A stretch of DNA of 64,000 nt from an uncultured Verrucomicrobiae bacterium. Its GTDB lineage: Bacteria > Verrucomicrobiota > Verrucomicrobiia > Chthoniobacterales > JAFAMB01. Both the position numbers and the translations under genes were made by a program. Positions within the stretch are counted from its first letter, which is position 1. Each line of letters starts with the position of its first letter. The stretch is from positions 43,082 through 107,081 of the forward strand of contig CAWEXO010000016.1 of NCBI GenBank assembly GCA_963813025.1, read 5' to 3'. Of the stretch, positions 40,302 through 44,207 are shown one piece after another. A model generated the notes under the pieces. That model searched no databases. It saw only the letters and a list, made by a program, of their open reading frames with translations, and was not told the origin of the DNA.

Positions 40302-40420
40302 TGAGCGGCCTAAGCGGCTTGAGCGGGCTGAGCGGCCTGAGACCGGCACTGGCACTGGCACTTGACACTGACACTGGCACTGGCACTTGACACTGACACT
40401 GGCACTAACGCTGGCACTGC
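40302..40420. repeat. composite short tandem repeat: TGAGCGGC(C/T) nonamers followed by GGCACT/GACACT hexamers
   Basis: About four nonamers at 40302-40340, then about 12 hexamer/heptamer units. Confidence 0.85.
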
Positions 40421-40618
40421 CAAGGGGAATCGCTAGCGTTGCGCGAGTGCGCCGAACAATTTTGACAAGGGTTCGGACGATGCCGGGCGTGTCGGACTTT
40501 GGAAATCGGTAGCACGCCACCAAGCGATTGGTCGCCCGAGCGGTTAGAGATCGTCTCAGATTGCCGCACTGTCCTGTGGCGGTAGGGCAGTATCGAGCAG
40601 GTCTGGCAAGGGAAAAAG

Positions 40619-41893
40619 TTAAAGTTTTTCACCGATTGGTGAGTGGCGTTTTTTGAGGACTTGGAGGTAGCGCTCTTCGTCATAAGGGGTGCGGTCCTGC
40701 CAGAGCCGGAAGATGACGCGGATCCATTTAAAGGCCAAGGCGCGCACGGCAGTGTGGTGGGACTTACCGCGGGCCATTTGCTCTTGATAATAGAGCTTGG
40801 CCCATTGGGAATAAGGAATGGAATGAGCCGCGAATTCGTGGAAGCTCTGGCACAGGAATTTGGAGCGAAAGCGCCGCCGCTGGACGCTTTTGGTTTGGCC
40901 GCTGCGCACTTGGACCGGAGCGATTCCGCTTTTTTTCTGTACCTCCAGGGCTTGGGCAAAAGCCTGCCGATTGGAGCCAAAAGCCACCAACAAGCGCGGG
41001 GCTAATTGCGGGCCGGCTCCGGGCAGACTTTCAAAAATGTGCCGATCGGGATGTTTGGCAAACAGAGTGTGGATGGCTTTGTCAAAAGCCTTGATGGAAT
41101 CTCGCAGCGGCAACAATTGACTGACCAAACACTTGCAACTCAGCACGGAGGGCTCCAGCAGAGAACGATCCTCGGTGACGGTTTGGGCCCGAGCAATCTT
41201 TTCCAAGCGCTCCTCGATCAAGCTCTGGCTGCGGCTGTGGTGCTGATAAAAAAAAGAGCGCAGGGTCTGGGGCTTGGCTTTTTTTAAACTCTGCAGGGTC
41301 GGCCAGCGTTTCAAAAAATGCAGCGCCAGAGTGGTGCCCAAATCATCGAGGAGCTCGAGGGCCAGCGGATAGTAGACTTTGAGTAAGCTGGTGAGTTGGT
41401 TTTCGCACACCACGGAGGCCTCGACGGCTTTGCGTCGGTGCTGACCGAGCAAATCCAGTTCCCGCACTACCGGCTCCGGGGGTTGATAAAGCCGGAGCCG
41501 ATCCCGATGGTGATCAACGAGCTCTTCGATCAATTGGCTGTCGCGAGGGTCATCCTTGGCGCCACTAGTAAAGAAGACCTTGCGGTATTCGCTTAAACTC
41601 AAAGGATTGAGCGGATAGAGGTCGATCCAGTCTCCCTGGGTGCGGAGCATTTCAAAGAGTGCTCCCCGATTTTGTTCAAAACCAATGGCCACCCGCCCCT
41701 GCGGACCAGCCAAGCTTTTGAGCTCTTCGAGCCAGGTCCGAACCGAAACGGGATCGGCGCCCAGCTGGAATGTCCGGCATCCTCCCTCCGGACCAGAGCG
41801 TTGACAGACAGCGTGTTCTTTATCAGCCCAATCGATTCCCACGCTGACCATATAATGGGGATCTGGGACCGGAAACGGATTTGATCGGTTCAT
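40619..41893 (-). CDS. IS110 family transposase/recombinase
   Basis: DEDD RuvC-like domain (GIDWA, GFEQ, KDDPRDS), SLPGAG, GIAPV..RSG catalytic Ser, RALAFKW.R. Confidence 0.95.
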   Translation of the reverse strand: MNRSNPFPVPDPHYMVSVGIDWADKEHAVCQRSGPEGGCRTFQLGADPVSVRTWLEELKSLAGPQGRVAIGFEQNRGALFEMLRTQGDWIDLYPLNPLSLSEYRKVFFTSGAKDDPRDSQLIEELVDHHRDRLRLYQPPEPVVRELDLLGQHRRKAVEASVVCENQLTSLLKVYYPLALELLDDLGTTLALHFLKRWPTLQSLKKAKPQTLRSFFYQHHSRSQSLIEERLEKIARAQTVTEDRSLLEPSVLSCKCLVSQLLPLRDSIKAFDKAIHTLFAKHPDRHIFESLPGAGPQLAPRLLVAFGSNRQAFAQALEVQKKSGIAPVQVRSGQTKSVQRRRFRSKFLCQSFHEFAAHSIPYSQWAKLYYQEQMARGKSHHTAVRALAFKWIRVIFRLWQDRTPYDEERYLQVLKKRHSPIGEKL

Positions 41894-41899
41894 GCTTGC

Positions 41900-42260
41900 T
41901 CCTTTTTTCTGGTTTTACCCAGCGCGAAAAAAGCCGCTTGGCTTTGGCCGTCCGAAATCCGTATAGTTAAGTCGTCGAAGTGTGAAGTGCTCGACCTCAA
42001 CTAGAGTATTCGTTGTGACGAATCAAAGCGCGACCGGCTGGCTCGAAACTCTGCCCTAAAGATCTCGCGGACCCGAAAATCCTATTCGTAGCCAGCCGGC
42101 GCGTCCTTCTTCGCGTGGGCAGCGCGGGATTTTGCCCGACTGCCCTTGGCAAAGAAAACCCTTTCTTTTTTCCAAAGCTTTCTTTTCTCCGGGCGGAGTT
42201 ATTCACAAGCTGGAGCTCCGACCGGTAGGGCCTCCGACCACAGCTTGCTGAATAACTCCG
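41900..42260 (-). ncRNA. candidate IS110 bridge RNA in the 5' non-coding end
   Basis: Multiple stem-loops; the internal loop at 42034-42099 carries segments matching both target flanks. Boundaries approximate. Confidence 0.65.
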
Positions 42261-42307
42261 GACTTGCTATACGAAAATTTAGAGAAGGTTTCGCAACATC
42301 CCAAAAT

Positions 42308-42432
42308 CGGTAGGGCGAGAATTCATCTGAGCCTTCGGCGAAGACTCGTTCGAGCCGGGCGCTGCGGCAGGTCACACTGAAGACGGCTCAAACAAGTTCT
42401 CGCTAAGGCTCGAATAAATTTTCGCCTTACCG
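42308..42432. repeat. REP doublet (family C, inverted arms)
   Basis: CGGTAGGGCGAGAATTCATCTGAGCC ... GGCTCGAATAAATTTTCGCCTTACCG. Confidence 0.75.
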
Positions 42433-42612
42433 GCGCAGGACCAAAGACGCTTTGGGACATGTCTCGAACCTTAGCTCGATTGCGCGAGCTACAGATTGGC
42501 CAAAGTCCGACAGACCCGAGGCCGTCCGCGCTACGAAGCCGCTCCCTCCGCTTCCTCTTGACAGTTCTCGGCTGACGCAATACTTTCCCCGCTCTTTTTG
42601 GGGTCAGGATCT

Positions 42613-43601: not shown

Positions 43602-44113
43602 ATGATGAGTCCGGTTATCTCTGTTGTCGTGCCGTCCCTGAACCAGGGGCGATTCCTGGCCAACTGCCTTGATAGCGCGATAGCCCAGGCCGACGAGGTG
43701 TTGCTGCTGGATGCCGGCAGCACCGACGAGAGCCTGCATTACGCCTTTGATTGGGACTGGTTTCTGCGTGCCGCCAAGATTTGCCGGTTCATCCGCATCG
43801 ATACAACGGTTCCCGGTATCGGCTCCGCCTGACGCATAAATCCGGGACGGGCGGTAAAAAGCGATGGCAAGAACTGCTCACAGTCGTCAGACGCCATTCT
43901 CCGGAAAATGTGATTCGTCATTACGAGTTTCTCGACAAACATCCGGCCGCTCGATGGTGGTTGAACAAACGGATGCGGCTCGATCAACATCTTCGTCGGG
44001 TATTGCCTGGACTTGTCGCCGGGAAAGTGGCGACCGCCTTATCACCGCCCAGCTGGTCGCTGCCTGACTACATCGAACGCGAGATCCTTTGGAAGATCTT
44101 CGGTATCCGGTAG
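43602..44113 (+). pseudogene. glycosyltransferase family 2 remnant (internal deletion plus frameshift)
   Basis: ISVVVPSLNQGRFL...DAGSTDES joined directly to LHYAFDWDWFLR; C-terminus (YR...KSGTGG) in another frame. Confidence 0.75.
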
Positions 44114-44207
44114 GCGATGGCCGATGACCGATGACAACCCGCCGCACTGACACTGACACTGACACTGGCACTGGCACTGACACTCATAGCCGATGGCCGA
44201 TGACCGA
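44114..44207. repeat. composite STR: CCGATG(A/G) heptamers flanking GACACT/GGCACT hexamers
   Basis: Same units as 26219-26404 but in the opposite orientation. Confidence 0.85.

Follow-up and report, generated by a model that had tools for sequence, protein, structure and literature searches.

The question raised by this locus is how an insertion sequence that sits in one of many copies of a repeat of its host, a soil bacterium, is guided to its site, and how much sequence element and site share where they are joined. The window (the whole stretch of DNA that was analysed, 64,000 nucleotides long) carries an IS110 element on its minus strand, and an earlier note, made from the letters alone, had proposed that the leader of this element encodes a bridge RNA. 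That main idea was borne out, as the leader holds a predicted bridge RNA with the guide polarity of IS621, a target loop in the stem that had been named and a guide for the right target; the element is real and its leader very probably encodes such an RNA. What the note missed is the unusual feature, a core of one base. The system itself is a known one, an IS110-group bridge recombinase in which only the identical CT core specific to IS621 fails. The reading favoured here, at a probability of about 0.7, is that of a recently active IS110-group insertion sequence in which recombination would be guided by the bridge RNA, target and donor would share a single base, and position 8 would serve as an extra handshake.

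The recombinase was described earlier as intact and on the minus strand, which it is:

40619..41893, minus strand: IS110 recombinase of 424 aa (41893-40619 in reading order; Pfam PF01548 and PF02371, NCBIfam NF033542)

Its place in the IS110 family is given by these Pfam and NCBIfam matches (148.4 bits to NF033542, for which the cut-off is 140), by the catalytic residues and by the fold. D21, E73, D115, D118 and S331 are invariant across 12 aligned proteins, and an AlphaFold model with a mean pLDDT of 86.7 finds its closest fold matches in IS621 and ISCro4 (E about 1e-13, 16-17% identity), with an extra helical insert predicted at about residues 176-241 between two long helices. The "GIDWA" subgroup to which the protein had been assigned exists as a motif cluster but is not new, as the clade is already catalogued: ISEsa2, ISCfr13, ISCps4 and ISCps5 stand together in the tree table of PMC11208160 (Supplementary Table 1, row 373). 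In the loop that follows the catalytic glutamate (recombinase residues 73-77) there is a conserved glycine four residues past that glutamate, a distance that is three in IS621 (E60 to G63, where G63 reads T9), and this spacing may be related to a tolerance of non-T cores.

The ends of the element were set by the comparison of its copies, of which the genome holds 10 in full, with protein identities of 98.8-100% and each at a different copy of the host repeat:

40589..42271, minus strand: IS110 element proper (common boundaries of the 10 full copies, empty paralogues, contigs of run X1)
42272, minus strand: core base G (position 9), left junction (G at 10/10 left junctions)
40588, minus strand: core base G (position 9), right junction (G at 9/10 right junctions, A in the copy on contig C4)
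42281..42304, unstranded: host repeat sequence earlier mistaken for left end and core (present in empty paralogues)

The flanks of all 10 copies diverge at the same two points, 42271 and 40589, and one shared G stands at each edge of the element, at 42272 on the left and 40588 on the right. Between these two core bases lie 1683 bp, and the other nine copies are one base longer. The base that the window copy lacks in its right end is present in those nine and in three X1 contigs at full depth, so that its absence is either an error of assembly or a defect private to this copy. The reconstructed empty site has an unoccupied counterpart on contig C5, with 95.9% identity over 121 nt, and all 12 paralogues that span the insertion site have a single G at the junction. 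In the X1 contigs the element gives way to host repeat at 40588, with the reservation that X1 is possibly the source population and hence not independent.

The earlier note had placed the left end at 42297 and read a 3-nt GAT core. The 10 full copies have common sequence only from 42271 inward, the stretch 42297-42273 taken for element is host repeat that the empty C5 paralogue also carries, and the two junctions have in common one base, the G at 42272 and 40588. The 26 nt by which the proposed left end overshoots belong to the host. Comparison of the termini of other copies, which the note had itself proposed, thus goes against its left end, its GAT core and its left guide, and the circle junction that it predicted is wrong because the ends and the core are wrong. 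With the ends corrected, the features are those of an IS110-family element: several copies, neither terminal inverted repeats nor target duplication, and a short shared core, here of 1 nt. The IS110 group is distinguished from the IS1111 group by a long left end that carries the RNA and a short right end (PMC11208160), and the left end here measures 378 nt and the right end 30 nt.

Some variation among the copies may be recorded. Contig C1 of the genome (G000) holds one truncated left end, which with the 10 full copies gives 11 left junctions; this remnant (C1:207997-207767) consists of about 215 nt of leader only and stops within the target loop. The first 13 nt of the element are tandemly duplicated in 3 of the 11 left ends (G000 C1:207997, C11:77976 and C13:92658), and the duplication travels with the element, since it is present at different insertion sites. 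Three copies have in common a cluster of about 20 substitutions midway along the gene (both on G000 C11 and C13:131627), in a stretch over which run X1 also varies; this represents either two sublineages or a recombinant patch. The genome also contains further, distant IS110 recombinases (24-40% identity), some of them broken, at G000 C3:83269, C11:73278, C13:19819 and elsewhere, and the one at C11:73278 adjoins a copy of the same host palindromic repeat.

The site itself lies at the outer end of this repeat, with positions numbered as for IS621 (core at 8-9) and the register taken from relatives with a CT core:

42273..42280, minus strand: left target, positions 1-8 (position 8 is C), in the host repeat (copy comparison)
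40583..40587, minus strand: right target, positions 10-14, in the host repeat (copy comparison)
42305..42436, unstranded: host palindromic repeat unit beside the insertion (DNA fold z = -4.99, repeat census)

The repeat is palindromic, about 130 bp long and extended in a modular way, and is found in about 143 clusters across the genome. The junction 10-mer occurs at 231 genome sites where 12.6 are expected, in 143 clusters, and the exact 12-mer target at 136 sites where 0.38 are expected. Variants of the repeat differ at positions 3-6. The left guide equals target positions 3-9 exactly at 11/11 left junctions, and the same match is found at 127 of at least 216 comparable empty sites (p about 0.004, by hand calculation). 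The neighbouring repeat unit at 42305-42436 has its own target-like site, which differs at position 6 and is unoccupied, so that within the window the element occupies the guide-matching site and the mismatched one beside it is empty. Short tandem repeats with a 6-nt unit also lie between genes at 40340-40420 and near 43890-44180, and read as Cys-Gln runs in spurious open reading frames.

The leader had been described as structured, and for the 404 nt originally chosen it is (z = -5.08, more structured than 100/100 shuffles); the stem at 42034-42099, with its internal loop and inner hairpin, was likewise recovered by folding. The parts of the predicted bridge RNA are as follows:

42194..42260, minus strand: 5' stem-loop (fold z = -4.29; similar stem in relatives by eye)
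42034..42099, minus strand: target-binding loop (fold, covariation)
42074..42081, minus strand: left target guide, in the sense of target positions 2-9 (guide-flank match and covariation)
42053..42058, minus strand: right target guide, complement of positions 14-9 (guide-flank match and covariation)
42050..42052, minus strand: target-loop bases facing positions 8, 7 and 6 (the base facing 8 pairs with donor T, not target C)
41949..42020, minus strand: donor-binding loop (leader alignment; fold z = -2.54, 6/200 shuffles as good)
41998..42006, minus strand: left donor guide (degenerate in this subclade, with one inserted base and an imperfect match)
41961..41966, minus strand: right donor guide, complement of donor positions 14-9 (matches 6/6)
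41958..41960, minus strand: donor-loop bases facing positions 8, 7 and 6 (the base facing 8 forms a Watson-Crick pair with target C and a wobble pair with donor T)

Once the ends are corrected, all four guides can be assigned from the sequence. The left guide proposed before, 42084-42079 with a 5/6 match, pairs with host repeat beyond the true junction, and the real guide at 42081-42074 adjoins and partly overlaps it. For the 3' loop strand at 42058-42051 an 8/8 complement to the right junction had been noted; the match exists, but only six of the bases pair with the target and the last two with the element's own end. A donor loop had been held not to be assignable with confidence, and with the true junction a putative one can be placed at 42020-41949. 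A candidate left donor guide at 42009-42005, with a 5-nt donor match, was discarded, as the stretch is conserved in relatives with differing donors. At the tip of the 5' stem-loop (42232-42222) about 10 nt of the right target recur, and these might base-pair with the right target guide; the recurrence is perhaps due to chance, being absent in the relatives L012 and L032.

Across 26 aligned leaders, 93.8% of cells in the target-loop stem are paired, with two-sided changes at 9 of 14 pairs and 0/500 shuffles as good, and the inner stem is 46% paired in what is there a gappy alignment. RNAalifold run on the aligned leaders recovered neither the donor loop nor the inner stems as consensus structure, and an Rfam search returned three matches at chance level, all far under the gathering score.

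Covariation of loop guides with target flanks, another check that the earlier note had named, was found after the ends had been corrected. The clade is rare in genome searches (8/401, 9/401, 7/351 and 2/351). In all, 148 relative loci were fetched, of which 104 have at least 37.5% identity; 77 of these could be parsed, the other 27, whose leaders were missing or unparsed, were left out, and a few more rows were removed by hand as mis-parsed or off-register (four in the right-end tests, three in the left-end test). One row was kept per distinct guide, a shift of one base was allowed for all target pairs, and the permutations ignore kinship. Under these rules the left target guide matches its cognate flank at 6.17 of 7 positions and non-cognate flanks at 3.15 (18 guides from 63 rows, 0/100,000 permutations), the right target guide at 4.39 versus 1.99 of 5 (18 guides from 59 rows, 0/100,000) and the left donor guide at 2.3 versus 1.2 of 3 (10 guides from 58 rows, 4/100,000). 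The position-9 base of the right donor guide follows the core in relatives. Misfits occur: the left guide of L094, in a longer loop, matches 2/7, the left flank of L080 does not fit its own guide, 4 of the 18 right guides match 2-3 of 5, and the left donor guide of the window element matches 1/3.

Two observations on the relatives lie to one side of this. The upstream region of L163 has two tandem target loops with slightly different guides ahead of one donor loop. By eye, several relatives appear to target attC-like integron sites (the right flanks of L094, L034/L159, L090, L167 and L150, and the junctions of L153 and L155), and their insertions lie beside a GTTRRRY-type box, which is taken here to be the attC motif, or at the other end of the site. 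Targeting of attC is known for the IS1111 group; the relatives in question carry their RNA in the left end.

The corrected ends also bring together, on joining, the two donor arms and the boxes of a predicted promoter:

42266..42271, minus strand: right donor arm, which doubles as the -10-like box of the promoter predicted at the circle junction (4/6 to consensus)
40604..40609, minus strand: -35-like box in the right end (5/6 to consensus)
40589..40598, minus strand: left donor arm, ending C-T at positions 7-8 (without one base present in the other nine copies)

The boxes were scored against the sigma70 consensus hexamers. Their spacing across the predicted junction is 17 nt in nine copies and 16 in the window copy, and 14 of 24 distinct junctions have, at the 17-nt spacing, a -35 box with 5/6 or more matches; the -10 box served to locate left ends, so that only the -35 box is an independent test of the promoter. 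The predicted circle junction itself has 0 occurrences in the genome, and no circle joint was seen in the contigs of four runs, assembled contigs being a form of data from which rare forms drop out. Among the sequencing runs listed as containing this stretch none was of RNA. The joined ends would rebuild a sigma70-like promoter, as for IS621 (PMC11208158).

With ends, target, donor and guides in place, the core can be read. Target positions 8-9 are CG and donor positions 8-9 are TG, so that position 9 alone is in common, and the identical dinucleotide of the IS621 type, with T at position 9, is absent. Within the clade at more than 60% identity, position 8 is C at 25/25 left junctions and T at 23/23 right junctions, kin and duplicates included. 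The predicted Watson-Crick pairs between the RNA and positions 6-9 number four before strand exchange and six after it, which is what is looked for in a handshake; positions 6-7 contribute two pairs before and two after, and position 8 none before and two after.

A wider parse covered 170 loci, of which 83 were dropped, leaving 87 rows and 40 distinct junction types. Among these types 25 share CT, nine differ at position 8 and share position 9, one (the C4 copy) differs at both, and five are off-register or mis-parsed. In this clade, in L003 (shared A), in L010 (shared G) and in L094 (shared T) the position-8 base of each loop pairs with the DNA of the partner; in L153 and L155 position 8 differs without clean partner pairing, by eye. 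Empty sites were verified in this genome only; those of L003 and L010 are derived from the partner arm of the palindrome. In a protein tree with a midpoint root L003 joins this clade (100/99), the sister of L094 is an element with a CT core (100/100), a third group consists of L153 and L155 (100/100), and L010 has no firm placement. If CT is ancestral, the position-8 mismatch would have arisen at least three times.

The favoured reading can be set out as a series of events modelled on IS621, where cleavage of the top strands follows position 9, the cut strands change partners and the handshake pairs form at positions 6-7 (PMC11208158). The element would circularise and so rebuild the promoter, and an RNA of about 320 nt from the left end would then be bound by the recombinase. 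Its first loop would pair with both strands of a repeat site of 13-14 nt and its second with the circle junction; the binding is presumed, and the complementarity and covariation of the loops with target and donor are features of the sequences themselves. Cleavage of the top strands would follow position 9, exchange would come next, and the overlap with its mismatch would be resolved in the top strand's favour, the outcome seen at all junctions. For IS621 the expected product has a mismatched, unligated bottom strand beside the core, a core described as invariant, and in the structural model positions 8-9 are invariant and positions 6-7 set direction (PMC13626964). Here position 8 (target C, donor T) would have no Watson-Crick RNA pair before exchange and two after it, with no net gain at the usual 6-7 handshake. 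The mismatch would fall within the overlap, need no new cutting geometry and add forward drive. A new 1-nt cutting stagger was considered for the position-8 mismatch and dropped, the overlap of IS621 already spanning mismatched positions; its bottom-strand cut would appear to lie at top positions 5|6.

One datum stands against a cut after position 9, namely the C4 copy, with G at the left junction and A at the right, which the favoured reading explains only by mutation. An A at position 9 is found at 3/134 comparable genome sites (two of them within the repeat), and private differences among the seven closest copies amount to about 3 in 11,700 sites, and this higher rate favours a target origin of the A and a crossover at 8|9. 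The crossover would then lie one base to the left, after C-T (7-8) in the donor and T-C in the target, the left G of C4 being of donor type, the shared G outside the overlap and the number of shared core bases zero. The target loop agrees with this in that it keeps the bases facing the C-T core of relatives at the same distance from the closing stem, and its right guide is longer by one base. The proposal nevertheless depends on the single C4 copy, where a mutation or an assembly error may lie, and donor spacing, promoter spacer and donor-loop length are all in register with CT-core relatives. Of the 10 in-register types with a difference at position 8, 9 (all but C4) have position 9 in common, which on this proposal would be a coincidence, and L094 lacks C-T at donor positions 7-8. 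A crossover that needs no core is on this balance unlikely.

Somewhat less likely still is that the mechanism is the ordinary one and the position-8 mismatch a drift tolerated after retargeting, with no role in direction or efficiency. Such drift would suit the 25 of 40 junction types that retain a shared CT, the L153 and L155 junctions, and the fact that IS621 already resolves overlap mismatches at positions 6-7 (PMC13626964, PMC11208158). It does not account for the finding that in 4/4 groups differing at position 8 the base in the target loop tracks the donor and that in the donor loop the target, nor for positions 6-7 showing no net gain in pairs here, which leaves position 8 as the source of the gain. 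That the protein chooses the target by recognising the host hairpin, with loop matches that are chance or vestigial, is very improbable: the target does lie within a strong palindrome, and a target stem-loop contributes to recognition by ISPpu10 (10.64898/2026.03.19.712850), yet the guides track 18 different targets and guide-mismatched sites at the same hairpin position are unoccupied. Hairpin recognition may supplement RNA guidance, not substitute for it. Least credible, and refuted by the comparison of copies, is the original model, in which the element ends at 42297 and 40595, the core is GAT and 42084-42079 is the left guide. The trinucleotide does stand at both places in the window copy, and the 5/6 match exists, but 42297-42281 is absent from the left end of the other nine copies and found in empty repeats, and the right trinucleotide is inside the element, as all 10 copies are alike up to 40589.

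The significance of the favoured reading lies in the engineering of bridge recombinases as genome editors. Bridge RNAs are predicted in 85.7% of the IS110-group elements of ISfinder, and the non-CT cores tried for IS621 (AT, GT and TT) were matched in both DNAs (PMC11208160); design rules demand identical core dinucleotides, CT or GT, in both sites (10.1101/2025.05.14.653916). The available text of PMC13626964 gives no natural case of a core mismatch, and the literature, covered in part, describes no natural one-base core for IS110 elements, nor one for Verrucomicrobia, prior notice of short cores in this clade being possible. Sharing of one crossover base instead of the usual two may loosen the design rule for enzymes of this family. 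A natural, recently active element with G9 and a position-8 mismatch suggests that a single base may suffice as core, and the handshake at position 8 suggests that direction may be tunable at a third position, which would widen the choice of site pairs. If the core-free crossover were true instead, the whole overlap would be read as handshake, the shared G would be incidental and no matching core base needed, and the recombinase could join almost any two sites with a strong bias to insertion. The element also provides an annotated orthologue, with ends, target, donor and four guides, from a clade of long recombinases without a close solved structure. The gain is incremental, because the bridge system as such is known.

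Set beside IS621 and ISCro4 (IS622), the element is alike in its DEDD residues and catalytic serine, its fold, and its long left and short right ends (PMC11208160, PMC11208158, 10.1101/2025.05.14.653916). The predicted RNA has the same 5' stem-loop and target loop and a putative donor loop, with left guides of the same sense and right guides complementary, and junction promoter, REP-like target and handshake pairing, here also predicted, are common to all three. It differs from them in a protein of 424 aa against about 326 aa, with 16-17% structural identity and the helical insert, in a predicted RNA of about 320 nt against 177 nt, and in one shared G where they have a CT dinucleotide with a near-invariant T9, position 8 here being handshake-like. 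The left donor guide lies about 3 nt further from the crossover than that of IS621 and is degenerate.

ISEsa2, named in papers that appear to be genome surveys, is closer, with 40.6% identity over 98% of the protein, the same N-terminal motif and, by eye, the same two-loop leader layout; its target is different and, by eye, it appears to share a 2-nt core, GA. Insertion at a fixed position of an abundant palindromic repeat is a trait in common with ISPpu10, ISPpu9 and IS621 (PMC11208160, PMC12288879, 10.64898/2026.03.19.712850), although, unlike ISPpu10 with its CT core, the element described here uses a palindromic repeat some 130 bp long, in the genome of a member of the Verrucomicrobiota. 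As a multi-copy element it is also like CazIS110-1 (10.1101/2025.10.25.684509) and the half-match excision of IS621 (10.64898/2026.08.31.748434), and copy-out with top-strand insertion would fit the constant retention of the top-strand base seen here, with no close kinship implied.
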